A DNA stretch of 36,789 nt from Thermoanaerobaculia bacterium (lineage in GTDB: Bacteria; Acidobacteriota; Thermoanaerobaculia; Multivoradales; JAHEKO01). A program made the position numbers and the translations under genes. The stretch is from assembly GCA_041575955.1 (NCBI GenBank), contig JBFGLX010000003.1, positions 1 through 36,789 of the forward strand. The letters are read 5' to 3'. Under the pieces are notes generated by a model. The model ran no database searches. It was given only the letters and a program-made list of their open reading frames with translations, and was not told where the DNA came from. This document shows, in pieces, positions 15,978 through 34,599 of this stretch (its first letter is position 1; each line of letters opens with the position of its first letter).

Positions 15978-16032
15978 GGCGCCGGGAGCGCAAGACAATG
16001 GCCGCGTTTTCCGTCTCTTCGAGACGGGAACG

Positions 16033-16575
16033 ATGGCTGTGCACGAACATCTGCGGCCCGGGCGCTCGGCTCCTGGACGCCGGCGGGTCCGGCTCGAGGC
16101 CGTCGGCGGCTGGTCGCTGATCGAGCTGCTGCTCGCGAGCGCCCTCTTTCTGGTCGCGCTGCTGGCGGCGACACCGCTGTTCGTGCGCGCCGTCGGCGAC
16201 GTGCGCGCCGGTGGCGTCCGCTCGACAGCGTCGGCCCTGGCCCAGGACGCCCTGGAGAGCGCGCTACCGCCGCCGGTGGCGGGCTCCCCGGTGGCGCGCG
16301 TGGAGTACTACTCGTTCGAGCGCCGGCGTTGGCTGGCCGAGCCCCCGGCGCCGCCCGACCGCGCCCTCTGGGTGCGCGAGACGAAGGGATTGCTCTACCC
16401 GCTGGCCGCGATCTCCGACGGCCGCGTGGCCCCTGGGGAGAGTACGCCGGGCGGCGACTGCCGGCCGGCGGACAGCCCCGCGATCTGTCTGTTGGGCGTC
16501 CGAGTCGAGCTTTCCCGCCGGCCGGGAGGCCGCCCGGTCGTCACCCTGGAGCGTCTCGAATGGACAGGCGGCTGA
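16033..16575 (+). CDS. PilV-like minor pilin/pseudopilin
   Basis: Prepilin-like G|WSLIELLLA with E+5 and a hydrophobic helix. First gene of an overlapping three-gene set. Confidence 0.65.
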   Translation: MAVHEHLRPGRSAPGRRRVRLEAVGGWSLIELLLASALFLVALLAATPLFVRAVGDVRAGGVRSTASALAQDALESALPPPVAGSPVARVEYYSFERRRWLAEPPAPPDRALWVRETKGLLYPLAAISDGRVAPGESTPGGDCRPADSPAICLLGVRVELSRRPGGRPVVTLERLEWTGG

Positions 16576-17711
16576 GCCGCGGGCGCGGCACCTCGCTGAT
16601 CGAGCTGCTGGTGGCGCTGGCGCTCGGCCTGGGCCTGGTCGCCGGGCTCCTGTCGCTCTTCCGGGTCCACGCGGCGGTGGCTCACCGGCAGAGCCAGCTG
16701 GCCGACCTCCAGCAGGCGTTGCGCATCGCCAGGCACGAACTGAACCGAGCGTGCCGGCTGGCGGGACGGGGCGGCCTGCTCGACGCGGCGGTGGCGGTCC
16801 GGAACAACGTCGCTCCGGGGACGCGCATCGGCGGCGCCGGCACCGCCGGCGTCGTGGCGGGAACGGACGTGCTGGTGGTGCGGGGTGCGCTCGGAGGCCC
16901 GATGCTCGAGGCCACCGGCGCCGCGGGGCTGGCCTCGGGCTCGGCCAACCTGATCCTGACCCGGCTGCGCGCTGCGGGCACCGTCCAGGAGCTCGAGCCG
17001 CTGGCGGAGGCCGCGGCCGGCGGCGAGGCGCTGCTGTTGAGCGGCGGCGCCGGCTCGGGGCGCTGCGCGGTCGTCGAGGTGACCAGCCTCGCCGAAACGA
17101 AAGGCGAGCACGGCGAGCTGCTCGAGCTGGTGGTCGGTTTCCGCGCGGAGGGCTCGGCCACCGCCGACGGCTACCGGGCTCTGGCGCGCGGTTGCGAGCC
17201 GCCGCTACCGGATGCGCCGCTGCTCGTCGGCGTGCTCGAGGAGCAGCGGTTCTACCTGCGCCGCGACGACCGCACCTTTGGAGTCGACGCCAGCCACCGG
17301 CTCGCGCGCGCCCGGTTCCGCCCGGGCTCGGAGCGCGTCCATCCGGGCGGACCGCGAAGCGGCGTGGCGCTGGTCGACCATGCGGTCGACCTGCAGGTGG
17401 CGCTGGGGTTCGACTCCGACGGGGATGGAGCGATCCTCGAGAGCTCCGGTCCCGGCCGGGCAGCCGACGAGTGGCTGTACAACGATCCAGCCGATCCGGT
17501 GGCGGTCGCTGACCGGCTTGGGGGGCGCCCGGAGCTCATCCGCTGGAGTCTGATCTTGCGATCGGCGCGGCCGAGTCGCGGGCATCTGGCGCCGCCCCTG
17601 GGCCAGCTGGAAGACCATGAGTACGATCGAGCCGGACCCGACGGGGACCCCGTGAGCCGGCTCTTCCTGCGCGGCTCGACCGGCGCCACGGTCCGGCCGC
17701 GAAGCCGATGA
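16560..17711 (+). CDS. PilW-like minor pilin, 383 aa
   Basis: MDRRLSRGRG|TSLIELLVALALGLG, LQQALRIA...RLAGRG, VDLQVALGFDSDGDG (PilW-type pattern). Confidence 0.78.
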   Translation: MDRRLSRGRGTSLIELLVALALGLGLVAGLLSLFRVHAAVAHRQSQLADLQQALRIARHELNRACRLAGRGGLLDAAVAVRNNVAPGTRIGGAGTAGVVAGTDVLVVRGALGGPMLEATGAAGLASGSANLILTRLRAAGTVQELEPLAEAAAGGEALLLSGGAGSGRCAVVEVTSLAETKGEHGELLELVVGFRAEGSATADGYRALARGCEPPLPDAPLLVGVLEEQRFYLRRDDRTFGVDASHRLARARFRPGSERVHPGGPRSGVALVDHAVDLQVALGFDSDGDGAILESSGPGRAADEWLYNDPADPVAVADRLGGRPELIRWSLILRSARPSRGHLAPPLGQLEDHEYDRAGPDGDPVSRLFLRGSTGATVRPRSR

Positions 17712-18412
17712 CCGGACGGCGACGGTTCGCGGCCGAGCGCGGCGGCGCCTATCTGCTGGCGCTCACCGCCCTTCTGGCCCTGACCGGCCTGGGAATCGCG
17801 CTGTCGGGGATCGCTCTGATCGAGCGCCGGTTGGGCTCGGCCGACGAGCGCCGGCAACAGGCGCTCAACGCGGCCGACAGCGGGCTGGCGCTCGCCACCG
17901 CCCGCCTGCTCGCCGGTGGCGGCAGCGATCCGCTGCAGGTCGTCTTCGGCGCCGGCCGCACGGCGGCGATGGCTCGCGCCAGCCGGGTGCGGGTCGAGCC
18001 GCCGCTCCTGGTTGCCGCCGCTCCGTGCGCGTCCTGCGATCCGGCGGCCGGCGGCGTCGGCAGGGTGAGCTACGCGCTGGCCGCCCTCGGCGAGCAGATC
18101 GTCTGGCCCGGGCACCTTTCGCCGGACGACCCGCGCCCGACCGCCCGGGCGTCCGTGGAGGCGATCGTGACCCTCCAGCCCTGGCCGATTCCGGGCTCGC
18201 CGGAGCCGCCCGGGGCCGCCGCTGGCGGCCCGGCGTGCGATCCGGAGGCCCGCGCGAGAGCGCTCGAGCGGCTGCGCGGCGAGCTGCATCCGCCCGGGTG
18301 CAGATTCGGACCGGCGTCGCTCGCGGTGCGGGCGCTCGACGCCGAGAGCGGCTCGAGCTGCGGGGTAACGGTGCCCGTCTGCGTGCTCCTGAGCGGCTGG
18401 CGAGAGCGCTAG
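17708..18412 (+). CDS. PilX-like minor pilin
   Basis: ERG|GAYLLALTALLALTGLGIAL lacks E+5, as in PilX. QALNAADSGL. ATGA overlap with the pilW-like gene. Confidence 0.7.
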   Translation: MTGRRRFAAERGGAYLLALTALLALTGLGIALSGIALIERRLGSADERRQQALNAADSGLALATARLLAGGGSDPLQVVFGAGRTAAMARASRVRVEPPLLVAAAPCASCDPAAGGVGRVSYALAALGEQIVWPGHLSPDDPRPTARASVEAIVTLQPWPIPGSPEPPGAAAGGPACDPEARARALERLRGELHPPGCRFGPASLAVRALDAESGSSCGVTVPVCVLLSGWRER

Positions 18413-18427
18413 ATCCTGACCGGCGGC

Positions 18428-18433
18428 TATACT
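18428..18433 (+). promoter_or_regulatory. -10 box TATACT, probable leaderless promoter of the CHAD-parA pair
   Basis: TATACT lies 8 nt before ATG 18442, with no SD. Confidence 0.55.
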
Positions 18434-18441
18434 GGCGCGCC

Positions 18442-20025
18442 ATGGCCGAGCGCGGGATCGCCTACTGTGCCGGCGACGAGTCCGAGCTCGAGCGGATCGT
18501 GCGCGCTCTGGGTGAGCGCTTCGCGATCGAGCAGGAGCGTACCCTCAGGCGGCGGCTCTACTACGACACCTTCGACTGGCGTCTGTGGCGGAGGCGAAGC
18601 CGGCTGTGGACCGAGCCCGAGCCGGCTGGCGCCCGGCTGGTGTGGCAGCGCGAGCCGCCGCGGCGGCGGCTCGGACTGGCGTTGGCGGCCGAGCGCGGCG
18701 GCGAGATCGGCTTCGCGGCCGATCTGCCCGCCGGGCGGCTTCGCGACCGCCTCACCCGGGTGCTCGGCGTGCGCCGGCTGCTGCCGGTGGTCGAGGTGCG
18801 CGCCGAGGGCCGGCTGGTCCGGATCCTGGACGGCCGGCAGAAGACCGTCGTCCGGGTGTTCGCGGAACTGCCGGCCGCCCGCGCGCCCGGCGCCCCCGGC
18901 CCGTGGACGCGGCTGGCGCCGCTCGCCGTCGTCCAGCCGGTCAAGGGCTATCCGGGGGCCTGCCGCGAGGTGACCGGCTTCCTCGGCGGCGAGCTCGAGC
19001 TCGCGGAGCGGCAGGCGGACGAGCTCGAGGCCGGCTCGGTTCTCGGCGGGTTGGGTCCGGCCGGTGGCTACACCGGCAAGCTGAGCGTGCCCCTCGACCG
19101 CGACGCCGACGCCGACGATGCGCTGCGCGCCGTGCTGCGCGAGCTGCTCGAGACGATCGAGAGGAACGAGGCCGGGACCATCGCCAGGCTCGACACCGAG
19201 TTCCTGCACGACTTCCGGGTGGCCGTCCGGCGGACGCGGTCGGCGCTGAGCCAGACCCGGAAGGTGTGGGCGCCCGAGCTCATCCGCCCGTTCCGCCGCG
19301 AGCTCTCCTGGCTGGGCGGGATCACCGGTCCGATGCGCGATCTGGACGTCTACCTGCTGGCGCTGCCTGGGTACGCCGCGGCCCTGCCGGCGCCGGTGCG
19401 TGCCGACCTCGAGCCCTTCCGACGGCTGCTCGAGTCGCACGGCGAAGCCGAGCAGGCGAAGCTGGCGTCCGCGCTCGGCGGGTCGCGCTACCGCCGGTTG
19501 ATCGACTCGTGGCGGAGCTTCCTCGCCGCCCGCCCGGCCGAGGAGAGCCGCCCCCCCGCGGCCCGCCAGCCGATCGTGCGCCTCGCCCACCGGATCATCG
19601 GCAAGGCCCACCGCCGCATCCTGAAGCGCGGGCGCGCGATCGACGACGACACGCCTCCGGAGGCGCTTCACCGCCTGCGCATCGACGGCAAGAAGCTCCG
19701 CTATCTGCTCGAGTTCTTCCGCGCGCTCTATCCACCGGCGGCGCTCGGGCCGCCGATCCGAGCGCTCAAGCAGCTCCAGGACAACCTCGGCGCCTACAAC
19801 GACTACGGCGTCCAGCTGCGCATGCTGGAGAGCTGCGGCGGCCGGCTGGCCACCGGCGACGCCCCGGGCGTCGCGGCCGTGATGGCGCTGGGCCGGCTGG
19901 CGGCCGAGCTCGAGCGGCGGGAAGCGCGCGAGCGCGCCCGCTTCTCGGAGCGGTTCGCCGAGTTCAGCCGCGGCGAGACCAGCGAGCGTTTCCGGGCGCT
20001 GCTCGCGGCGGGAGAGACGCCGTGA
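18442..20025 (+). CDS. CHAD-domain polyphosphate-binding protein with degenerate N-terminal CYTH-like domain, 527 aa
   Basis: YYDTFDWRL (CYTH-like). CHAD motifs EFLHDFRVAVRRTRS, GPMRDLDV, LHRLRIDGKKLRYLLEFF, LKQLQDNLGAYND. Confidence 0.92.
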   Translation: MAERGIAYCAGDESELERIVRALGERFAIEQERTLRRRLYYDTFDWRLWRRRSRLWTEPEPAGARLVWQREPPRRRLGLALAAERGGEIGFAADLPAGRLRDRLTRVLGVRRLLPVVEVRAEGRLVRILDGRQKTVVRVFAELPAARAPGAPGPWTRLAPLAVVQPVKGYPGACREVTGFLGGELELAERQADELEAGSVLGGLGPAGGYTGKLSVPLDRDADADDALRAVLRELLETIERNEAGTIARLDTEFLHDFRVAVRRTRSALSQTRKVWAPELIRPFRRELSWLGGITGPMRDLDVYLLALPGYAAALPAPVRADLEPFRRLLESHGEAEQAKLASALGGSRYRRLIDSWRSFLAARPAEESRPPAARQPIVRLAHRIIGKAHRRILKRGRAIDDDTPPEALHRLRIDGKKLRYLLEFFRALYPPAALGPPIRALKQLQDNLGAYNDYGVQLRMLESCGGRLATGDAPGVAAVMALGRLAAELERREARERARFSERFAEFSRGETSERFRALLAAGETP

Positions 20026-20796: not shown

Positions 20797-22941
20797 TCAC
20801 TCCTGGGGGTGCCAGGAGCCGCGGTGGTGGAGCCGGTGGTGCTGCGAGTCGACGCGCTCGTCATCCGGTCCGGGTCGCACCCGCTGGTAGACACCGTCGG
20901 TGTCCAGTACCCGAGCCTGCACGTTGTCGCGCAGGTGCAAGAAGAGGATGTCGTCGCGCAGCGCGCACCGGAGCTTCGGATCGAGGACCGGGAAGAGAAG
21001 CTCGACCCGGCCGTCCAGGTTGCGGGGCATGAGGTCGGCGCTGCCGAGCAGGATCTCCTCCTCGCCGCCGTTGCGGAAGTAGTAGATGCGCGAGTGCTCC
21101 AGGAAGCGGCCGACGATCGAAGTGACGCGGATGTTGTCGCTGACGCCGGCGACGCCGGGTCGCAGGCAGCAGATGCCGCGTACCTGGAGGTCGATGCGCA
21201 CCCCGGCCCGGGAAGCTTCGTAGAGCTTGCTGATGCAGCTTTTGTCGACCAGCGAGTTCATCTTGAACGCCAGGTAGCCGCCGCCGCTGTCGCGCTGCAC
21301 GGCGATCTCGCGGTCGATGCGCTCGAGCAGCTGGTCGCGCATCGAGTGCGGCGAGACCAGCAGCTTGCGGTAGCTGTTCTTCCGCGAGTAGCCGGTCAGG
21401 GAGTTGAACAGGTCGGAGACGTCCGCCGCCAGGTCGGAGTCGGCGGTGAAGTAGCCGAGATCGGTGTAGACGCGCGAGGTGACCGGGTTGTAGTTGCCGG
21501 TTCCGAGGTGCACGTAGCTCTGGATGCCGTGGGCCTCGCGCCTGACGATCAGGCACATCTTGCAGTGCACTTTCAGGCCCACCAGGCCGTAGACCACGTG
21601 CACCCCCGCCTCTTCCAGCGCCCGTGCCCAGACGATGTTGTTCTCCTCGTCGAAGCGCGCCTTGAGCTCGACCAGAACGGCGACCTGCTTGCCCCGCTCG
21701 CGCGCCTCGCGCAGCGCGCGCACCACCGGCGAGTTGGGTCCGGTGCGATAGAGCGTCTGCTTGATGGCGATCACGTTGGGGTCGCGGCTGGCGCACTGGA
21801 TGAGGTCGACCACCGGCCCGAAGCTGTCGAACGGGTGGTAGAGCAGCGCGTCGTGCTCGCGCAGCACCGAGAACAGGCTCTCGTCCTGGGTGAGCTGGGG
21901 CGGCGTCAGCGGCAGGAACGGCGGGTCCTTGAGCTCCGGCCGGTCGATCCTGGTCAGCTCCATCAGGTCGGCGAGTCCGAGCGGGCCCTCCTCCTCGTAC
22001 ACCTGATAGGGCGAGATGCGCAGGTTGCGGCTCAGGATCGAGCGGATGCGCTCGGGCATCCGGGCGTCGACCTCGAGCCGGATCGCGGAGCCGAAATGGC
22101 GCTGCGCGACCACGTCCTGCATGGTCGTCATCAGGTCGGCGGCTTCGTCCTCTTCGATCTCGAGATCGGCGTCCCGGGTCACCCGGAAGGGGTGAGCGGC
22201 GAACACCTCGAGCCCCGGGAAGAGCAGGTCGAGGTTGGCCGCGACCACTTCGTCCAACCAGACGAAGTTGCTCCCGACGGGCTCGACCAGGCCGAGGTGC
22301 TCGTAGCCGCCGGCGCGGTCTTCGCTGGGAATCCGCAGCAGGCGCTCGAGCGTGTTCGGCACCTTGAGCCGGGCGAAGCGCTCGCCGTCACGGTCATCGT
22401 GGATCTCGACCGCCAGGTTGATGCTCAGGTTGGAGATGTGCGGAAACGGGTGCCCCGGATCGAACGCCAGCGGCGTCAGCACCGGGAAGATCGCGCGCTT
22501 GAAGTGACGGCGCAGGAGCTTGCGCTGCTTGCGCTTCAGGTCGCCGTAGCTGAGGACGCGAATCGCCCGCTTGGCCAGCTTGGGCTGCAAGTCGTCGCGC
22601 CAGCAGCGGACGCTCTGCTCGAGCATCGGCATCAGCTTCTCGCGAATCGCGGCGAGCTGCTCGGCCGGGGTCATGCCGTCCGGGGGGGCCTCGAGAGCGC
22701 CCGCCTCCAGCTGCCGTCGCAGGCCGGAGACCCGGATCATGAAGAATTCGTCGAGATTGCTGTTGAAGATCGACAGGAACTTGACCCGTTCGAGCAACGG
22801 ATGGTCCGGGTCGAGCGCTTCCTCGAGCACGCGGGCGTTGAAATCCAGCCAGCTCAACTCGCGGTTGGTGTAGTACCGCTTGTCGGCGAGATCGGGGGCG
22901 GCGTCGGTAAGCTGGGTGGGGCGGTCTTCGAGAGTAGCCAG
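20797..22941 (-). CDS. ppk1: Polyphosphate kinase 1 (probable CTG start), 714 aa
   Basis: YTNRELSWLDFNARVL, NLDEFFMIRV, HPFPHISN, KQTLYRT, ELKARFDE, GLKVHCK, GTGNYN, RFLEHSR, SADLMPRNL. The ORF-track start at 22857 cuts the conserved N-terminal motif. Confidence 0.96.
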   Translation of the reverse strand: MATLEDRPTQLTDAAPDLADKRYYTNRELSWLDFNARVLEEALDPDHPLLERVKFLSIFNSNLDEFFMIRVSGLRRQLEAGALEAPPDGMTPAEQLAAIREKLMPMLEQSVRCWRDDLQPKLAKRAIRVLSYGDLKRKQRKLLRRHFKRAIFPVLTPLAFDPGHPFPHISNLSINLAVEIHDDRDGERFARLKVPNTLERLLRIPSEDRAGGYEHLGLVEPVGSNFVWLDEVVAANLDLLFPGLEVFAAHPFRVTRDADLEIEEDEAADLMTTMQDVVAQRHFGSAIRLEVDARMPERIRSILSRNLRISPYQVYEEEGPLGLADLMELTRIDRPELKDPPFLPLTPPQLTQDESLFSVLREHDALLYHPFDSFGPVVDLIQCASRDPNVIAIKQTLYRTGPNSPVVRALREARERGKQVAVLVELKARFDEENNIVWARALEEAGVHVVYGLVGLKVHCKMCLIVRREAHGIQSYVHLGTGNYNPVTSRVYTDLGYFTADSDLAADVSDLFNSLTGYSRKNSYRKLLVSPHSMRDQLLERIDREIAVQRDSGGGYLAFKMNSLVDKSCISKLYEASRAGVRIDLQVRGICCLRPGVAGVSDNIRVTSIVGRFLEHSRIYYFRNGGEEEILLGSADLMPRNLDGRVELLFPVLDPKLRCALRDDILFLHLRDNVQARVLDTDGVYQRVRPGPDDERVDSQHHRLHHRGSWHPQE

Positions 22942-23014
22942 ATTTACCTCCGGGCGCGCGAGATCTAGTATAGCGGGCGGACTCGAGCCGGACGAACCGG
23001 CGCCCGGAGGGAGT

Positions 23015-23518
23015 GTGAAGCGCCTCTATCTGTTGCGACATGCGAAGTCGGATTGGCAGGGCGACTCGCCGACCGACCACGATCGGCCGCTCTCGGCGCG
23101 CGGTCGGCGGGCAGCGTCCACCGTCGGCAGGTTTCTGGCCGCCGTCGGGCAGAGGCCCGACGCGGTGGTCACCTCGACCGCGGTGCGGGCGCGAGCGACG
23201 GTCGAGATCGCGGCGAGCGCGGGCGGCTGGAGCTGTCCGGTGACGGCGACCGAGCGGCTCTACGCCGGCTCGCCGGACCGGCTGCTCGAGGTCGTCCGCG
23301 AGACCGACGACGCCGTCGGCCGCCTGCTGCTGGCCGGGCACGAGCCGGTCTGGTCGGAGAGCGCCGGCCGCCTGATCGGCGGCGGCAGGATCAAGCTGGT
23401 CACCGCGGCGGTGGTCAGGATCGATCTCGAGAGCGCTCGCTGGCGCGACGCCGCGTTCGGCGCCGGAACGCTGGCGTGGCTGGTAACCCCCAAGCTGCTC
23501 ACCAGGTTCGGCGGCTAG
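23015..23518 (+). CDS. sixA: SixA-like phosphohistidine phosphatase, 167 aa
   Basis: GTG after GGAGGGA. LYLLRHAKS, DHDRPLSARG, STAVRARAT, ERLYA, AGHEP. Confidence 0.88.
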   Translation: MKRLYLLRHAKSDWQGDSPTDHDRPLSARGRRAASTVGRFLAAVGQRPDAVVTSTAVRARATVEIAASAGGWSCPVTATERLYAGSPDRLLEVVRETDDAVGRLLLAGHEPVWSESAGRLIGGGRIKLVTAAVVRIDLESARWRDAAFGAGTLAWLVTPKLLTRFGG

Positions 23519-23547: not shown

Positions 23548-26013
23548 ATGGGCAAGCGCGACTCGAGAGACCAGAGCCGAGGCCGCAAGCAGGTCACGGT
23601 GGTCAATTCGAAAGGGCAGGAGAGCCGTTTCCTGCGCGGCATGATCACCCACGACCTGGTGCAGCGCGGTCTCGACTTCGATCGGGCGTACGCCATCGCC
23701 AGCTCGGTGCGCGACACGGTCGGCGGGCGCGAGCGGGTCTCGACCGGCGAGCTGGCCGGCCTGATCCGGGAGGAGCTCGTCCGCTACCTGGGTCCCGATC
23801 TGCCCGACCACCTGACCCGCGGCTCGCGCCCCGCGCCCGCCTTCTCGGTGCTCTACCACGGCGACCGCCACCCCTTCTCGCGCGGGCTGCTGGCGCGCAG
23901 CATCCACGCCGCCGGGCTGGAGCTCGACCACGCCTACCGGTTGGTGCGCCGGCTGACCGAGATCCTCCAGGAAGAGGGGCGCAGCGAGCTGCGCAGTGAC
24001 GAGCTGGTGCGGCGGGTCAGCGAGCTGCTCCGGGAGACGGAGGGTGCGGAGGCGGCGCGCCGGTATCTGCTGGTCCGGCGCATCAACCGGCTGCCGAGAC
24101 CCCTGGTCGTCTACGTCGGGGGCGCCACCGGCACCGGCAAGTCGACGCTGTCGCTGGAGCTCGCGCCGCTGCTTCGGATCTACCGGATCGGGGCGACCGA
24201 CACGATCCGGCAGGTACTGCGGATCGTCTTCTCGGAGAAGGTGATGCCGGAGCTCCACAGCTCGAGCTTCGAGACGATCTCTCCGTTCGGCTTCGAGGCC
24301 TCCGAGCCGCCGTTACGGCTCAGCGAGACCGACTCCTCGGACCTGCTGTTGCAGAGCTACGAGGAGCAGTCCGCCCGGGTCGTGGTCGGCGTGCGCGCCA
24401 TCGTCGAGCGCGCCATCACCGAGAACACCAGCCTGATCGTCGAGGGCGTCCACCTCTGCCCACCGCTGGTGCCCTTCAAGGACCTCGAGGGCGCGATCTA
24501 CCAGGTGCCGCTGGTGCTGGCGACCCTCGATCCGGAAGTGCACCGCTCGAGGTTCCTCGCCCGCGCGGGCGCCACCGGCCGGCACGCCGAGCGCTATCTC
24601 GAGCGCTTTCGGGCCATCCGCCAGATTCACGATTTCGTTCTCCACCAGGCCGAGCTCCACGACGTCCAGACCGTCGACACCTCGGACGGCGATCCGCCGG
24701 TGGTGGAGACGCTGCGGCTGGTGACCGAGATGCTGGGCAGCAAGCTGCCGGAGTTCTACTCGTCGGCCGATGGCGCGACCGACACGCCGGTGCCGACCCT
24801 GCTGCTGGTCGTGGACGGCCTCGCGGACCGGCCGATCCGCGCCCTCGGCGGGCGCACGCCGCTGCAGGCGGCCAGGACGCCGACGCTCGATCGGCTGGCC
24901 CGCGAGGGACAGACCGGGCTGGCCGACCCGGTCTCGCCGGGCGTGGTCCCGGACACCGCCGCCGGCAGCCTGGCGCTGTTCGGCCAGTCGCCGGTGGCGA
25001 TGAAGCGGGGACCGGTAGAGGCGCTCGGCGCGGGCATCGAGCTCGGCCCGGGCGACGTGGCCCTGCGCGGCAACTTCGCCACCCTCGACGACCAGGGCCT
25101 GGTGATCGATCGCCGGGCAGGGCGCATTCGCGAGGGTGTCGGCGAGCTCGCCAAGGCGCTCGATCGACTGCCGCTGACCGGTGGCCTGGCCGACGAGATC
25201 GAGGTGCGGGTGCGCAACGCCACCGAGCATCGGCTGGCGATCGTCCTGCGCGGGGAGCGGCTGTCGTCCGCGATCCTGGGCAGCGATCCGGGCGAAGGCG
25301 CCGCCCCGGGGCGGCCCCTGATCCCGCGGCCGCTCGACCCCCACGACGAAGCCGCGGTCTACACCGCGCGGGCGCTGGCGCTGTTCGAGCAGCAGGCGCG
25401 GCAGGTGCTCGGCGGCCACAAGCTCAACAAGCGGCGGCGGCGCGAAGGGCTGCCGGTCGCCAATGCGGTGATCACGCGCGGCGCCGGCCACCTCCACCGG
25501 TTGATTCCCCTGGAGGAGGCCGGCTTCCCGTTGCGTATCGCTTGCGTCGCCGGCGACCGGACGGTGCTCGGGCTGGCCGGCTGGCTCGGAGCTCGAACGA
25601 TCCACAGCGCCGAGATGACGGCCAGCCTCGACAGCAATCTGCGACTCAAGTTCGACGAAGCGCTCGCGGCGTTGGCGAGCTCGGATCTGGTCATCCTGCA
25701 CCTCAAGGGAGCCGACATCGCCGCCCACGACCAGCGTCCGGATCTCAAGGTCGACTTCATCGAGCGCTTCGATCGCGAGCTCGGCAGGCTGGTCAAGAAG
25801 CACGACGGCCCCCTGCGGATCGCCGTCGGGTCCGATCACTCGACCCTGTCGGAGAGCGGGCAGCACGCGGCCGACCCGGTACCGGTGCTGATCTGGGGCG
25901 ACGGCATCGAGCCCGACGCGGTCGAAGCCTTCGACGAGTCCTCGGCCGGCGGCGGACGGCTGCAGCGCTTTCCGCTCCAGATGTTCCTGACCCGGCTCTA
26001 CGAGCCGCGCTAA
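23548..26013 (+). CDS. Fusion of 2-phosphoglycerate kinase-like (ATP-cone + P-loop) and cofactor-independent phosphoglycerate mutase (ApgM type), 821 aa
   Basis: N-half: FLRGMITHDL and PFSRGLLARSI, GGATGTGKST, TDTIRQ, IVEGVHL. C-half from about 24790: LVVDGLAD, GRTPLQAARTPTLD, RGNFAT, DRRAGRI, HLKGADIAAHD, GSDHST, HAADPVP. Confidence 0.88.
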   Translation: MGKRDSRDQSRGRKQVTVVNSKGQESRFLRGMITHDLVQRGLDFDRAYAIASSVRDTVGGRERVSTGELAGLIREELVRYLGPDLPDHLTRGSRPAPAFSVLYHGDRHPFSRGLLARSIHAAGLELDHAYRLVRRLTEILQEEGRSELRSDELVRRVSELLRETEGAEAARRYLLVRRINRLPRPLVVYVGGATGTGKSTLSLELAPLLRIYRIGATDTIRQVLRIVFSEKVMPELHSSSFETISPFGFEASEPPLRLSETDSSDLLLQSYEEQSARVVVGVRAIVERAITENTSLIVEGVHLCPPLVPFKDLEGAIYQVPLVLATLDPEVHRSRFLARAGATGRHAERYLERFRAIRQIHDFVLHQAELHDVQTVDTSDGDPPVVETLRLVTEMLGSKLPEFYSSADGATDTPVPTLLLVVDGLADRPIRALGGRTPLQAARTPTLDRLAREGQTGLADPVSPGVVPDTAAGSLALFGQSPVAMKRGPVEALGAGIELGPGDVALRGNFATLDDQGLVIDRRAGRIREGVGELAKALDRLPLTGGLADEIEVRVRNATEHRLAIVLRGERLSSAILGSDPGEGAAPGRPLIPRPLDPHDEAAVYTARALALFEQQARQVLGGHKLNKRRRREGLPVANAVITRGAGHLHRLIPLEEAGFPLRIACVAGDRTVLGLAGWLGARTIHSAEMTASLDSNLRLKFDEALAALASSDLVILHLKGADIAAHDQRPDLKVDFIERFDRELGRLVKKHDGPLRIAVGSDHSTLSESGQHAADPVPVLIWGDGIEPDAVEAFDESSAGGGRLQRFPLQMFLTRLYEPR

Positions 26014-26104: not shown

Positions 26105-28492
26105 ATGTCCAAGAACATCGTTCTCTGTTCCGACGGCACCGGCAACTCGGCCGGCAAGCGCGGCGAGGGCACCAACGTCTGGAAGCTCTTTCGCGCCGTC
26201 GACGTGCACCGCCGCAACTCCGAGAAACGCCTGCAGATGTCGTTCTATGACGATGGCGTGGGCTCGGGCGGAATGAAGATCCTCAAGATGCTGGGCGGCG
26301 CGTTCGGCATGGGCTTGAACCGCAACATTCGCGATCTCTACTCCTTCCTCGTACAGCACTACGATCCGGGCGACCGCATCTTCCTGTTCGGCTTCAGCCG
26401 CGGGGCCTTCACCGTGCGGGCACTGGCCGGCTTCGTGCACACCTGCGGGATCATCGACCGCAACCGGCCGATGCCGTTTCCCTGGCGCTGGTGGCACTGG
26501 CTGCTGCCCTGGCGCTGGGGTCGCAAGGGCACCGCCTGGTCGCTCGAAGAGCGGATCCGCAAGGCGTTCTCGATCTACCGCGACGCGCACCGCTCGGGAG
26601 CCTCGGGCTCGGCCCGCGGCACCGAGCTGACGTCGGAGCGCAGCCGCGCCTTCCGCGACCAGCAGAGCGTCGAGATCCCCGAGGATCTGCGCGGCGCCGG
26701 CTGCGGCGGCGCGCACCAGATCCCGATCGAGTGTCTGGGCCTGTGGGACACGGTGGACGCGGTGGGGCTGCCGGTCGACGAGCTCACCCAGGCGCTCGAC
26801 AAGATCCTGCGCTTCAGCTTCTACCGGCACGGCCTCCTGCCGTGTGTCCAGAGGGGGTTCCACGCGCTGGCCATCGACGACCAGCGGCACACGTTCCACC
26901 CCGTGCTCTGGGACGAGTCGAAGATCCAGCCGCACCAGGAGATCGAGCAGGTCTGGTTCGCCGGTATGCACTCGAACGTCGGTGGCGGCTATCCCAAGGA
27001 CCAGATGGCGCTGGTGACCCTGGACTGGATGATGCGCAAGGTCGGATACGACGCGACCGACAATCCACGGGGTCTGCACTTCCGGCCCGGCCTGGCCGAG
27101 GAGTGGTGCCAGGAGGCCAACGTCAACGGCAAGCTCTACGACTCCCGATCGGGCCTCTCGGCCTACTACCGCTACCGGCCCCGCGACATCGACGAGCTGG
27201 CGCGCGAGTACCAGAAGCTGCCGGCCGGTCAGCTGCCCAAGGTGCACGTCAGCGTCGTCGAGCGGATCCGCAACGCCACCGACGACTACGCGCCGGTCAA
27301 CCTGCCCAGGGAGTTCGAGGTCGTCGACCTCCGGGGTCCAACGACCGGTGACGGCGACTGCGACGGCCCGACCCCGCCGGCGAGCCAGCCCTGGTGGGAG
27401 CACGTCGGCGCCACCGTGCGGGCGCGCGAGAACGGCTGGCGTGCGTTCGACGTCGCCTGGGACGTCATCTGGCTCCGGCGGCTGCTCTACTTCGCGTTCG
27501 TCGCGCTGACCGGATTCCTGGTCTGGCGGCTGATGACCCTGCCGTCGGCGGAAGAGGTCGGCGCCGAGGTGCCGTGGGGAGTGGCGAGCCCGCTGTTCGA
27601 AGTCGCTCGCTGGGCGGCGCCTGCGGCCACCGAGGGCCCGGTGCTGGCGCTGCGCGACAACCCCTTCTGGCTGCTGCTGGTGCTCGCCATCGGCGCGACC
27701 CTGCTAGTGATCCGGAGCCGGCTGCTCCTCCGCACGCGCGAAGCGGGCTCGGCCGCCTGGCGGCACTTTTACGGCCTCGGCACCCGCCTGCCGCGGGCCA
27801 ACCTGCTCGAGAAGCTGGTACGCGGCATTCGCAAGTCGCCGCTCACCAGGCTGTCGCGATGGTTCAGCCGCACCGTGATGCCCTGGCTGGTGCTCGGCGC
27901 CCTCGGCGTAGGAGTCGTCTGGCTAGGCTACCGCCTGACCCAGCCACCGGCGCCGCCACCGGCGCCGGACACCGCCTGTGGCCGCGGGTCGGTGGCGCGA
28001 ACGCTGGAGGTCGGCGGCGAGCGCTCGAGCCGCTTCGAGACCGGCTGTCCGGCGCACGCCACCGACGCCCTCTTGGAGGCGGGCGCCCGCTACTCGATCG
28101 CGGTGACGATCGATCCCCAGGTCGACGAGGAGTGGTGCGACGCGAGCTTCGCGGCCGGTCCGGCCGGGCTGCGGGAGCCGGCCGGAGACTCGGAGTGCGG
28201 CGACGGGCCGGGTGCGGCGAAGAGCCCTTCAGAGGCCGGCATCTTCCGCTGGGGTCGGTTTCTGAAAAGGGCTCCCCACAGCGGCTGGTACGTCCTGCTG
28301 GGCGAGATCGGCGCCGGCGGCGGGCAACGGTTCGAGATCGCCGAGGGCGTGGCCGAATACCGCGCGACGGCCACCGGCCCGCTCCGCCTCTACGTCAACG
28401 ACGCCATCTGCTACGTCTGCCCCTCGGGGCCGTGGTGGTTCTACGACAACAACGAGGGCAGCGCCACGGTCACGGTCCGGCGCCTCGACTAG
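26105..28492 (+). CDS. DUF2235 (Tle1-like alpha/beta hydrolase) membrane protein with C-terminal beta-sandwich, 795 aa
   Basis: IVLCSDGTGN, GFSRGA (GxSxG), GLWDTV, HALAIDDQR, WFAGMHSNVGGGY. About 3 TM segments. C-terminal YVNDA...YDNNEGSATVTV. GAGGAGG RBS. Confidence 0.88.
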   Translation: MSKNIVLCSDGTGNSAGKRGEGTNVWKLFRAVDVHRRNSEKRLQMSFYDDGVGSGGMKILKMLGGAFGMGLNRNIRDLYSFLVQHYDPGDRIFLFGFSRGAFTVRALAGFVHTCGIIDRNRPMPFPWRWWHWLLPWRWGRKGTAWSLEERIRKAFSIYRDAHRSGASGSARGTELTSERSRAFRDQQSVEIPEDLRGAGCGGAHQIPIECLGLWDTVDAVGLPVDELTQALDKILRFSFYRHGLLPCVQRGFHALAIDDQRHTFHPVLWDESKIQPHQEIEQVWFAGMHSNVGGGYPKDQMALVTLDWMMRKVGYDATDNPRGLHFRPGLAEEWCQEANVNGKLYDSRSGLSAYYRYRPRDIDELAREYQKLPAGQLPKVHVSVVERIRNATDDYAPVNLPREFEVVDLRGPTTGDGDCDGPTPPASQPWWEHVGATVRARENGWRAFDVAWDVIWLRRLLYFAFVALTGFLVWRLMTLPSAEEVGAEVPWGVASPLFEVARWAAPAATEGPVLALRDNPFWLLLVLAIGATLLVIRSRLLLRTREAGSAAWRHFYGLGTRLPRANLLEKLVRGIRKSPLTRLSRWFSRTVMPWLVLGALGVGVVWLGYRLTQPPAPPPAPDTACGRGSVARTLEVGGERSSRFETGCPAHATDALLEAGARYSIAVTIDPQVDEEWCDASFAAGPAGLREPAGDSECGDGPGAAKSPSEAGIFRWGRFLKRAPHSGWYVLLGEIGAGGGQRFEIAEGVAEYRATATGPLRLYVNDAICYVCPSGPWWFYDNNEGSATVTVRRLD

Positions 28493-33195: not shown

Positions 33196-34599
33196 CTAGG
33201 CCGAGCGCTCGGCCAGGTGGCGCAAGCGCGCGCCGATGGCGGCGCGGTCGTCGCTCTCCACGGTCCGGAGGTCGAACAGCAGGGCGTCGTCCTGGGCACG
33301 CGCCAGGATCGCCGGCTCGCCCCGGCGAAGCTCGGCGGCGAGGGCGGCCACCGAGCACCACGCCGGCGCCACCGCAACGCCCCAGCTCGGCAGATCGTGG
33401 GTCGGAAGCGAGCCGCTGCCGGCCTGCGAGAAGCAGGCGACCGCCTCCGCCTCGAGGCCGGGAATGTCGGCCAGCTGCGCGGCCCACGCACCGGCCTCGC
33501 GCTCGAGCTCGTCGGCGTCCCTGGCGAGCCGCCGGAGCGCCGGAACCCGCTCGATCGCGTGCTCGTCCCCTCCCAGGTAGAGGCGCAGGGTCGCCTCGAG
33601 GGCACTGTAGACCAGGCGTCCGGGGCGCATCGCCCGGAACAGCGGGTGCCGGCGACACGCTTCGACCGGCGCCGCCCGGCCCGCGATCAGGCCCGCCTGC
33701 GGACCGCCGAGGAGCTTGTCGCCGCTGAAGCAGACCAGGTCGACGCCGGCCGCGATCAGCTCGGGCACCGACGGGTCGGCGATGTGGCCGGTCGCGGCCA
33801 GGTCGACCATGCTGCCCGAGCCGAGGTCGTAGACCACCGGCACTCCGCGCTCGCGCCCGACCTCGACCAGCGCTCGGACGTCGACCTCCGCGGTGAACCC
33901 GACCACCCGGTAGTTGGAGGTGTGGACCTTCAGGATCAGCCCGGTGTCGTCGTCGATCGCCCCTTCGTAGTCGCGCAGGTGGGTGCGATTGGTGGTACCG
34001 ACCTCGGTCAGCCGGGCGCCGCTCTCGGCCATGATCTCCGGCACCCGGTAGGAGCCGCCGATCTCGACCAGCTCGCCGCGCGAGACGATGACCCCCTTGC
34101 CCCGCGCCAGGGCGGCCAGCAGCACCAGCGTCGCCGCCGCGTTGTTGTTCACCACCGTGGCGTCCTCGCAGCCGGTGAGCTCGCGCAGGAGGTCCGCGCA
34201 GCCGCGGTCGCGGCCGCCCCGCTCGCCGCTTGCCAGGTCGATCTCGACCCGCTGCGGCTGGCCGGAGAGCTCGGCCAGAGCCGCGACCGCCTCGGGCGCC
34301 AGCGGGGCTCGGCCGAGCCCGGTGTGCAGGATGACGCCGGTGGCGTTGATCACCCGCCGGTAGTAGGTCCGCGAGCTCTCCGCCAGGCGCTCGCCGAGCC
34401 GCGCGCGGATCGCCTCGACGGAGATGTCGTCGGCGGACGCGCCCTCCTCGGCGATCCGCCGGCGCAGGTCGTCGAGGAGCCTACGCAGCTCGGAGAGCAC
34501 CTGCCGTCGCGGGTAGGCGGCGCACAGCTCCTCGAGCTCGCCGCCCATCAGGCGGTCGACCTTGGGCAGGCCGCGCAGAAGCTGTTGCGGGTCGGTCAT
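33196..34599 (-). CDS. selA: L-seryl-tRNA(Sec) selenium transferase (selenocysteine synthase), 467 aa
   Basis: VINATGVILHTGLGRAPL, VNNNAAA, SRGELVEIGGS, VHTSNY, DLGSG, FSGDKLLGGPQAG (PLP Lys). Confidence 0.96.
   Translation of the reverse strand: MTDPQQLLRGLPKVDRLMGGELEELCAAYPRRQVLSELRRLLDDLRRRIAEEGASADDISVEAIRARLGERLAESSRTYYRRVINATGVILHTGLGRAPLAPEAVAALAELSGQPQRVEIDLASGERGGRDRGCADLLRELTGCEDATVVNNNAAATLVLLAALARGKGVIVSRGELVEIGGSYRVPEIMAESGARLTEVGTTNRTHLRDYEGAIDDDTGLILKVHTSNYRVVGFTAEVDVRALVEVGRERGVPVVYDLGSGSMVDLAATGHIADPSVPELIAAGVDLVCFSGDKLLGGPQAGLIAGRAAPVEACRRHPLFRAMRPGRLVYSALEATLRLYLGGDEHAIERVPALRRLARDADELEREAGAWAAQLADIPGLEAEAVACFSQAGSGSLPTHDLPSWGVAVAPAWCSVAALAAELRRGEPAILARAQDDALLFDLRTVESDDRAAIGARLRHLAERSA

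Follow-up and report, generated by a model that had tools for sequence, protein, structure and literature searches.

What use does a bacterium have for a protein in which a kinase resembling the 2-phosphoglycerate kinase (2PGK) of methanogens is joined to a mutase of the ApgM family? The question is raised by a stretch of 36,789 nucleotides (positions 1 to 36,789 of the forward strand of contig JBFGLX010000003.1, assembly GCA_041575955.1, Thermoanaerobaculia bacterium), here called the window, which comes from a marine acidobacterium and has a G+C content of about 71%. The gene in question lies on the forward strand at 23548..26013, starts with ATG and encodes 821 amino acids (aa) comprising two ATP-cones, a 2PGK-like kinase and an ApgM-like mutase that carries threonine where solved ApgM proteins have serine (Thr-type). 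An earlier reading made from the letters alone (the sequence-only reading) had seen in it a one-protein route from 3-phosphoglycerate (3-PG) to 2,3-bisphosphoglycerate (2,3-BPG), meant for 2,3-BPG itself or for cyclic 2,3-diphosphoglycerate (cDPG) as a phosphate store, solute or signal. The fusion is genuine and conserved, and it belongs to a phosphate-homeostasis gene set of Thermoanaerobaculia-type Acidobacteriota in which it is linked, in a conserved manner, with pst, phoU, ppk and CHAD genes. As to function, we tentatively propose, with slightly less than even confidence, an accessory, ATP-cone-regulated bifunctional enzyme that would convert 3-PG via 2-phosphoglycerate (2-PG) to 2,3-BPG for phosphate homeostasis and not for cDPG, the product being read from the protein families involved.

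A conserved fusion of kinase and mutase

The fusion was looked for in the genome of the window (G000, completeness 78%) and in 40 related ones from the same order, of which 30 reach a completeness of 90% or more. It was found in 27 of these 41 genomes, in one frame in 24 and in pieces, at contig ends or frameshifts, in three. Ten of the other genomes, the unpublished G005 among them, have only a stand-alone ApgM (34-40% identical) and four have neither. A second sample consisted of the best 80 of 328 relatives of the kinase half (one genome per species, the query being a 6-sequence alignment). All 80 loci are from metagenome-assembled genomes (MAGs), which with few exceptions carry the label Acidobacteriota, Thermoanaerobaculia or 'Candidatus Multivoradales', and by our criterion kinase and mutase are fused in 75 of them. 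Because it occurs whole or in pieces in so many genomes of the order and in nearly all of the loci, the fusion is not an assembly artefact. Moreover, a word-based search listed 120 clusters of homologues (about 800-870 aa, 60-100% identity), those named being Acidobacteriota or Thermoanaerobaculia MAGs. Public annotation gives such proteins no other name than 'iPGM' or 'ATP cone domain-containing protein'. An exhaustive HMMER search also returned a second fused clade, only 35-41% identical, and, besides, many two-cone kinases and ApgM-like proteins that stand alone. In one family of fusions (f8, in G031, G219, G228, G255 and G305) the match begins at about residue 90 of an open frame of 830-860 aa, and the first ATP-cone seems to be replaced or strongly diverged.

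The start at 23548 is supported by a common aligned methionine in 10 fused homologues, and the full-length homologues have about 820 aa and 60-87% identity. Translation confirmed the single frame of 821 aa as well as the motifs that had been quoted from it: GGATGTGKST at residues 191-200, TDTIR at 217-221 and EGVH at 299-302 in the kinase half, and VDGLAD at 422-427, DRRAGR at 521-526, GADIAAHD at 721-728, SDHST at 762-766 and QHAADPVP at 772-779 in the mutase half. The Pfam matches are an ATP-cone (residues 105-180), PhosphMutase (451-627) and Metalloenzyme (416-793).

Two ATP-cone-like segments had been noticed in the sequence, and both were borne out. The second (23836..24093, forward strand, residues ~97-182) is found by Pfam (PF03477, 38.1 bits against a cut-off of 25.8). 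The first (23587..23835, forward strand, residues ~14-96) is diverged and lies below Pfam detection. Its residues 17-79 match the cone part of model NF003259 (model positions 6-70, E 6e-5), and a profile of residues 14-96 aligned by hhalign with a profile of residues 97-182 gave a probability of 99.7% and an E of 4e-27. In addition, an AlphaFold model of residues 1-405, built on a 19-sequence alignment (pLDDT 84.9), predicts a strand-strand-helix-helix-strand-helix unit twice, followed by the P-loop kinase. Judged by these profiles and the predicted fold, the diverged N-terminal segment is a genuine ATP-cone though Pfam misses it.

The kinase half (24094..24762, forward strand, residues ~183-405) has its Walker A motif at 24118-24147, TDTIR at 24196-24210 and EGVH at 24442-24453. 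The top kinase models of NCBIfam in the N-terminal half are both of the 2PGK family, NF008994 with 266.1 bits and NF003259 with 257.3 bits, followed by NF008995 with 123 bits and the mevalonate-3-phosphate 5-kinase model with 47 bits. The features expected of a 2PGK are present, namely a P-loop core with Walker A, TDxxR and (E/N)GVH and an N-terminal ATP-cone. Walker A, TDxxR, EGVH and several arginine and histidine columns are invariant in 19 kinases and 10 fusions. By its sequence the kinase is thus nearer to 2PGK than to any other P-loop family, and the grouping with another family that would have told against the first assignment did not appear. A Foldseek search with the N-terminal model returned generic NMP-kinase folds (adenylate and UMP/CMP kinases, E ~1e-5) and singled out neither the ATP-cones nor a specific kinase. 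A profile search of the PDB found no solved structure of this kinase family.

The mutase half is an ApgM-family domain of alkaline-phosphatase fold (24793..26010, forward strand, residues ~416-821). It scores 324.3 bits on TIGR00306 apgM in NCBIfam, above the subfamily cut-off of 320, and matches the solved ApgM structures 3KD8, 3IDD and 2ZKT with E ~1e-65 and about 40% identity (HMMER). These matches, together with the 2PGK models and the conservation of the fusion in relatives, uphold both family identities and the fused architecture proposed from the letters. The PhpG transferase model of NCBIfam scores 226 bits on the fusion, about 100 below apgM.

The exchange of serine for threonine at the phosphoacceptor, first suggested by a manual alignment, was reproduced by HMMER. 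VPDTAAGS aligns gap-free on AGSDTAHL of 2ZKT and on CGSDTSHM of 3KD8 and 3IDD, which places Thr470 (codon ACC, 24955..24957, forward strand) on the serine of the GSD motif, which we take to be the ApgM nucleophile. The protein accordingly lacks the serine nucleophile expected of an ApgM, PDTAAGS replacing GSDTAHL, and the motif past this column (GSDxxH changed to PDTAAGS) varies among the fused clades. The other active-site columns are kept. D423, T470, D723, H727, D763, H764, H773 and DRRAGR are invariant in 10 fused proteins, so that all the metal ligands are retained as had been claimed, the columns DG..D, GxDxxxHD, DH and H being presumably those ligands. The substrate-side columns RGNFAT, DRRAGR and EHR are likewise invariant in the 10 fusions and, as the metal columns, common to the solved ApgMs.

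Thr-type mutases, their partner kinases and the housekeeping enzymes

The threonine is not peculiar to this protein. The nucleophile column was read in 86 mutase domains, namely the query, the stand-alone ApgM paralogue of its own genome and those of 150 listed representatives that came through a filter for motif and length. Threonine was found in 12 of 12 fused proteins, and the 74 stand-alone proteins divide into 26 with threonine and 48 with serine, the paralogue of the window's genome being of the serine type. In a quick tree search with SH-aLRT support only, the rows fall into two groups: 35 in a Thr group, which takes in all 12 fusions and 23 of the stand-alone proteins, and 51 in a Ser group, of which 48 have serine.

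The two families are also linked outside the fusion. The kinase half was matched in 38 of 301 sampled Acidobacteriota genomes (the unpublished G087 included in the count), as about 21 fusions and about 14 stand-alone genes. At 12 loci of other Acidobacteriota with a stand-alone kinase, an ApgM gene directly adjoins the kinase in five, and all five of these ApgMs read GTDVGHL, that is, with threonine. As both the fused and the gene-pair forms occur, the same two families are tied together by a Rosetta-stone link. The threonine marks a kinase-coupled ApgM subfamily that had gone unremarked. In the literature covered, supplementary tables excepted, there was no account of the fusion or of a Thr-type ApgM, and no link between bacterial 2PGK and polyphosphate.

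The ordinary mutase step is provided by other genes. The Ser-type paralogue of the window's genome reaches 467 bits with the iPGM model NF003160, whose cut-off is 468, and a Ser-type ApgM is also present in 20 of the 27 fusion genomes. Five of the seven fusion genomes without it were tested, and all five have GpmI above cut-off; conversely, five of the genomes with a Ser-type ApgM were examined, and GpmI was absent from all of them. All 10 of these genomes hold a Ser-type ApgM or a GpmI beside the fusion, and a search for GpmA brought up no dPGM above cut-off in any of them. Because of these separate mutases the fusion is an accessory enzyme and not the glycolytic housekeeping mutase, and the possibility that it acts as sole mutase was rejected. 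The idea that 2,3-BPG is made as the cofactor of dPGM was rejected as well, no GpmA match exceeding the cut-off in any of the 10.

A further destination considered for the kinase product was cDPG. As NCBIfam holds no model of cDPG synthetase (cDPGS), the query was taken from an operon in a soil metagenome. Its protein L187:6641-7936 matches the cDPG synthetase of Methanothermus fervidus in the PDB (8ORU/8ORK) with an E of 2e-95. With this query no credible match was found in G000, 78% complete as it is, or in the 40 relatives, the lone match of 21.6 bits (E 2.6e-4) being at chance level. The absence of a synthetase that had been noted for the window was in this way extended to the genome and its relatives. 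Since no synthetase was found, cDPG is an unlikely product and this part of the sequence-only reading was given up. The idea of a phosphate store or signal was kept, backed by the phosphate and polyphosphate genes described below. An earlier attempt to pick cDPGS candidates among P-loop open reading frames (ORFs) of 380-620 aa in G000 (35 found, seven scanned against NCBIfam) was uninformative without a cDPGS model and was replaced by the direct search. One protein, L124 (G000:C17:14873-16444), is 523 aa long, belongs to no NCBIfam family and has a Walker A motif at about residue 344. In the PDB it matches small kinases at chance level only, and it was rejected as a cDPGS, having no match to that enzyme there.

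A metagenome scan made with the distant fused clade brought up many one-cone kinases on soil contigs as well. A recurring operon on these contigs (L153-L206, for example L187:5856-9844) encodes a metallophosphoesterase, a cDPG synthetase homologue of about 430-520 aa, a 2PGK with a single cone and a further protein of about 337 aa. In a quick tree of the kinases, from which 12 of 52 intended rows (including four of the five ApgM-adjacent kinases) were lost to a Walker-A pattern filter, nine of 10 cDPGS-linked kinases fall in one clade. Bacterial 2PGK-like kinases are therefore found in two contexts at least, beside a cDPG synthetase or coupled to a Thr-type ApgM. Because NCBIfam lacks a model for the synthetase, its homologues may escape automatic annotation.

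Phosphate genes around the fusion

A SixA-like histidine phosphatase of 167 aa (23015..23518, forward strand; Pfam His_Phos_1; TIGR00249 sixA 48.9 bits against a cut-off of 74.5) ends 29 bases upstream of the fusion and is probably its operon partner. Divergent from this pair lies the gene of polyphosphate kinase 1 (PPK1; 20797..22857, reverse strand), with four PPK1 Pfam domains, and beyond it that of a CHAD-domain protein (18025..20025, forward strand; Pfam CHAD 203 bits), a family which we take to be associated with polyphosphate granules. Relatives have pstS, pstC/A and pstB in the neighbourhood of the fusion, and also two genes of PPK2, one for a ParA-like ATPase and one for a PhoU joined to an LMWPc-like domain.

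By tblastn, a phosphate gene lies within 8 kb of the fusion in 49 of the 80 loci, related loci whose counts are not independent, or in 45 once four loci are left out in which PstB, perhaps a generic ABC ATPase there, was the only hit. Where the flanks are complete the figures are 32 of 41 and, with the same exclusion, 29 of 41. PPK1 was found in 22 of the 80 loci and CHAD in 11. The nearest neighbour, at less than 400 bases, is a phosphate gene in 34 of the 80. This is SixA-like, upstream and on the same strand, in 18 loci; PhoU, upstream and divergent, in five; PstB, upstream on the same strand, in four; PstS, upstream and divergent, in three; and other, mixed arrangements account for four. 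The arrangement differs among loci, which may be of the ppk type, the pst type or both, and in one case inverted. In the distant fused clade, pst/phoU or CHAD/ParA genes are next door in eight of 21 metagenome loci, of which many are on short contigs. For a gene taken at random, the chance of lying this near to one or two such clusters would be about 1%, a figure which is our rough estimate and not a computed control. Among the conserved neighbours at the loci we saw neither phosphonate or inositol genes nor any unknown gene fit for the role of a cyclase.

Several observations concern these neighbours themselves. The coding conservation of PPK1 runs past the TTG at 22857 towards a GGAGG about 85 bases upstream (22858-22945, reverse strand), and the start is probably near 22940. 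This segment has no in-frame ATG, GTG or TTG, and a CTG stands 5-6 bases past the GGAGG in the window and in locus L030; PPK1 may thus start at a non-canonical codon. The PhoU protein at L016:6492-7583 (reverse strand; cluster c4 in L021, L024, L025 and L026) has 363 aa and two PhoU repeats and is often divergent from the fusion; its C-terminal extension weakly matches the low-molecular-weight phosphatase or ArsC-like LMWPc family. Between PPK1 and CHAD, a ParA/MinD-like ATPase gene occurs in eight of the 80 loci (L021:14010-14759, reverse strand; also L023 and L029) and may encode a positioning factor for polyphosphate granules. Positions 16000-20000 of the window have 75% G+C and overlapping long ORFs on both strands. 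The CHAD frame is the only one of these that was assigned, and its first ~368 residues have no family match.

Two further genes lie on the other side of the fusion. Positions 26105-28492 (forward strand) encode a protein of 795 aa whose first 311 residues match a Tle1-like (DUF2235) catalytic domain of the type VI secretion system (T6SS), the remaining ~480 being without a Pfam or NCBIfam match; this gene is not a conserved neighbour of the fusion. A gene for selenocysteine synthase SelA is present at 33196-34599 (reverse strand), so the organism probably uses selenocysteine.

Proposed role, alternatives and known systems

What the fusion acts on, in which order its two reactions run, what it makes, how it is regulated and what it is for are inferred from the families and their gene context. 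In the proposed scheme the Thr-type ApgM domain would interconvert 3-PG and 2-PG through a phosphothreonine intermediate at a two-metal centre, and the fused kinase would use ATP to turn 2-PG into 2,3-BPG, a step which the two N-terminal ATP-cones might gate by the adenine-nucleotide level. The 2,3-BPG would stay uncyclised and could serve, beside polyphosphate, as a soluble phosphate-rich reserve, a counter-ion or an effector. Members of the SixA superfamily of histidine phosphatases hydrolyse 2,3-BPG in eukaryotes, and for this reason the SixA-like neighbour is a candidate for the return step from 2,3-BPG to phosphoglycerate and inorganic phosphate; it could equally serve PPK1. The 3-PG to 2,3-BPG chemistry of the sequence-only reading is in this way retained as the simplest one. 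Its purpose is moved to the phosphate economy, and a feeder mutase is not obviously needed beside a housekeeping mutase. In favour of the proposal count the domain assignments, the coupling of kinase and mutase, the invariant metal and substrate-side columns, scores on the 2PGK models close to those of kinases from true cDPGS operons, the separate housekeeping mutases, the phosphate genes nearby, and the effect of rice LPA1, a 2PGK homologue, on seed phytate as a further phosphorus store (PMC5764899).

A number of points weigh against this proposal. The window's genome is far from complete, at 78%. The kinase stays under both 2PGK equivalog cut-offs, with 257.3 bits against 343 for NF003259 and 266.1 against 603 for NF008994; the kinases of the cDPGS operons, with 267 and 271 bits on the 2PGK models, likewise fall under them. 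Relatives of the kinase use other substrates, as in mevalonate-3-phosphate 5-kinase, and those of ApgM include a transferase, PhpG. The invariant change from serine to threonine suggests an altered chemistry. The feeder mutase looks redundant, because the housekeeping mutase already supplies 2-PG. No ApgM was found near 2PGK in the bacterial cDPGS-type loci examined, and 10 of 10 fused kinases lie outside the cDPGS-linked clade of the quick kinase tree, which is indicative only. As to the gene context, the loci are related and their synteny is inherited; of the 41 full-flank loci 12 have no phosphate context, nor have most loci with a stand-alone kinase and ApgM, PPK1 and SixA occurring together in only one of 12. 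The SixA-like gene may functionally belong to PPK1 and not to the fusion.

The redundancy of the mutase leads to a different order of events, in which the mutase-like domain acts after the kinase with 2,3-BPG as phosphoryl donor, either as a bisphosphate-primed mutase comparable to phosphopentomutase or as a 2,3-BPG phosphotransferase or phosphatase, the whole forming a self-priming or cycling unit. A domain acting on the product of the kinase would fit, since 2-PG is already available from the housekeeping mutase and all the kinase-coupled ApgMs (12 of 12 fused, five of five adjacent) have threonine where the paralogue of the same genome and the three solved ApgMs have serine. The cDPGS-type operons, moreover, do without a mutase. 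Phosphopentomutase, an enzyme of the alkaline-phosphatase superfamily with a threonine nucleophile and activated by a sugar bisphosphate, provides a precedent. Nevertheless every other active-site column is that of ordinary ApgMs, the domain scores above the apgM subfamily cut-off, a second mutase would again be redundant, and a kinase and a phosphatase in one chain would make a futile ATPase unless tightly regulated. We regard this order of reactions as unlikely, though worth keeping in view.

It is improbable to a similar degree that the pair works on a substrate other than phosphoglycerate, such as another hydroxy-acid phosphate, a phosphonate intermediate or an inositol or sugar phosphate, for a compound of phosphorus storage or scavenging under Pho control. 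The scores of the kinase under the equivalog cut-offs would be in keeping with this, as would the presence of mevalonate-3-phosphate 5-kinase and of the phosphonoformyl transferase PhpG in the two superfamilies, the changed and clade-variable motif past the nucleophile, and the position of the fusion gene in line with or divergent from pst operons. In plants, the 2PGK homologue LPA1 affects phytate, and the passages of PMC5764899 at hand name no enzymatic activity for it. Against other substrates stand the 2PGK models, far ahead with 257-266 bits to 47 for the mevalonate-phosphate kinase, the invariance of the ApgM substrate-side motifs RGNFAT, DRRAGR and EHR, the 100 bits by which PhpG trails apgM, and the lack of phosphonate or inositol genes among the conserved neighbours seen.

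The two weakest explanations can be treated briefly. A cyclic pyrophosphate solute of the cDPG type, made from the product of the fusion by a cyclase that has no kinship with the known synthetase, would agree with 2PGK being the first enzyme of cDPG synthesis in methanogens (as described in passages of PMC10690619 and PMC12136491) and with the existence of bacterial 2PGK-cDPGS operons, but it is very improbable given that neither a credible synthetase in G000 and its 40 relatives nor a conserved unknown neighbour suited to be a cyclase was seen. Hardly to be credited, too, is an extra glycolytic phosphoglycerate mutase with a regulatory or inactive kinase-like appendage, suggested by the apgM score and the public label iPGM, but countered by the invariant Walker A, TDxxR, EGVH and Arg/His columns of the 19 kinases and 10 fusions, by the occurrence of the kinase as a separate gene beside a Thr-type ApgM, and by the separate housekeeping mutases.

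Beyond the proposed route to 2,3-BPG a bolder extension, which we put forward as a speculation with rather little expectation that it holds in full, is an ATP-cone-gated 2,3-BPG cycle encoded in a Pho island. The fusion would make 2,3-BPG, the Thr-type domain and/or the SixA-like phosphatase would free the phosphate, and the pool would act as reserve or signal beside polyphosphate, Thr-type ApgMs being a new mechanistic class of bisphosphate-using phosphotransferases. If true, it would offer the first biochemical handle on the COG2074 '2PGK' homologues outside cDPG producers, plant LPA1 included. We know of no established role for these homologues, no literature search aimed at this point having been made. 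They are found in many organisms not known to produce cDPG: the 2PGK family model has matches in Thermus, Deinococcus, Haloferax, Sulfolobus and Methanocaldococcus jannaschii, and plants have LPA1. That Thermus and Deinococcus possess both COG2074 and COG3635 was remarked in 2005 (in a passage of PMC1274311). What the fusion and the gene pairs add is that they tie 2PGK homologues to Thr-type ApgM and, in one large lineage, also to genes of phosphate uptake and polyphosphate. Behind them may stand a bacterial 2,3-BPG pool in the phosphate economy or a new chemistry on the alkaline-phosphatase fold. The public label 'iPGM' is misleading, as the fusion proteins are not the housekeeping mutase.

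Among known systems, the closest to the kinase half is the 2-phosphoglycerate kinase of M. fervidus (EC 2.7.2.16; NF003259/NF008994; COG2074), which has the same order of ATP-cone and P-loop kinase. The archaeal-type model of about 306 positions has one cone whereas the fusion has two, and the fusion kinase is below the equivalog cut-offs, joined to a mutase and without a cDPG synthetase partner in its genome and 40 relatives. In the passages of PMC10690619 and PMC12136491 at hand, cDPG and its pathway are described as archaeal. The bacterial cDPG-type operons of soil contigs (phosphoesterase, cDPG synthetase, 2PGK and a GlpX-like protein) share with the fusion a 2PGK-family kinase that has a dedicated partner. 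They differ in having one cone, a synthetase and no ApgM nearby, in place of two cones, a Thr-type ApgM and no synthetase.

The mutase half resembles ApgM (TIGR00306; 2ZKT, 3KD8 and 3IDD) in fold family and in the metal and substrate-side columns. It departs from it in the threonine at the nucleophile column and the changed motif that follows, and in being coupled to a 2PGK-like kinase and not a housekeeping mutase. Phosphopentomutase, a Thr-nucleophile mutase of alkaline-phosphatase fold primed by a bisphosphate, can be compared by analogy only. The same holds for the Rapoport-Luebering shunt of red cells (BPG mutase, MIPP1), in which 2,3-BPG arises on a side route of glycolysis and histidine phosphatases hydrolyse it, the enzyme families of synthesis being different. 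Finally, rice LPA1 (low phytic acid 1) is likewise a 2PGK-family homologue genetically linked to a phosphorus store, the phytate of the seed according to passages of PMC5764899, but it is eukaryotic, its store is phytate and not polyphosphate, and the likeness is one of description.

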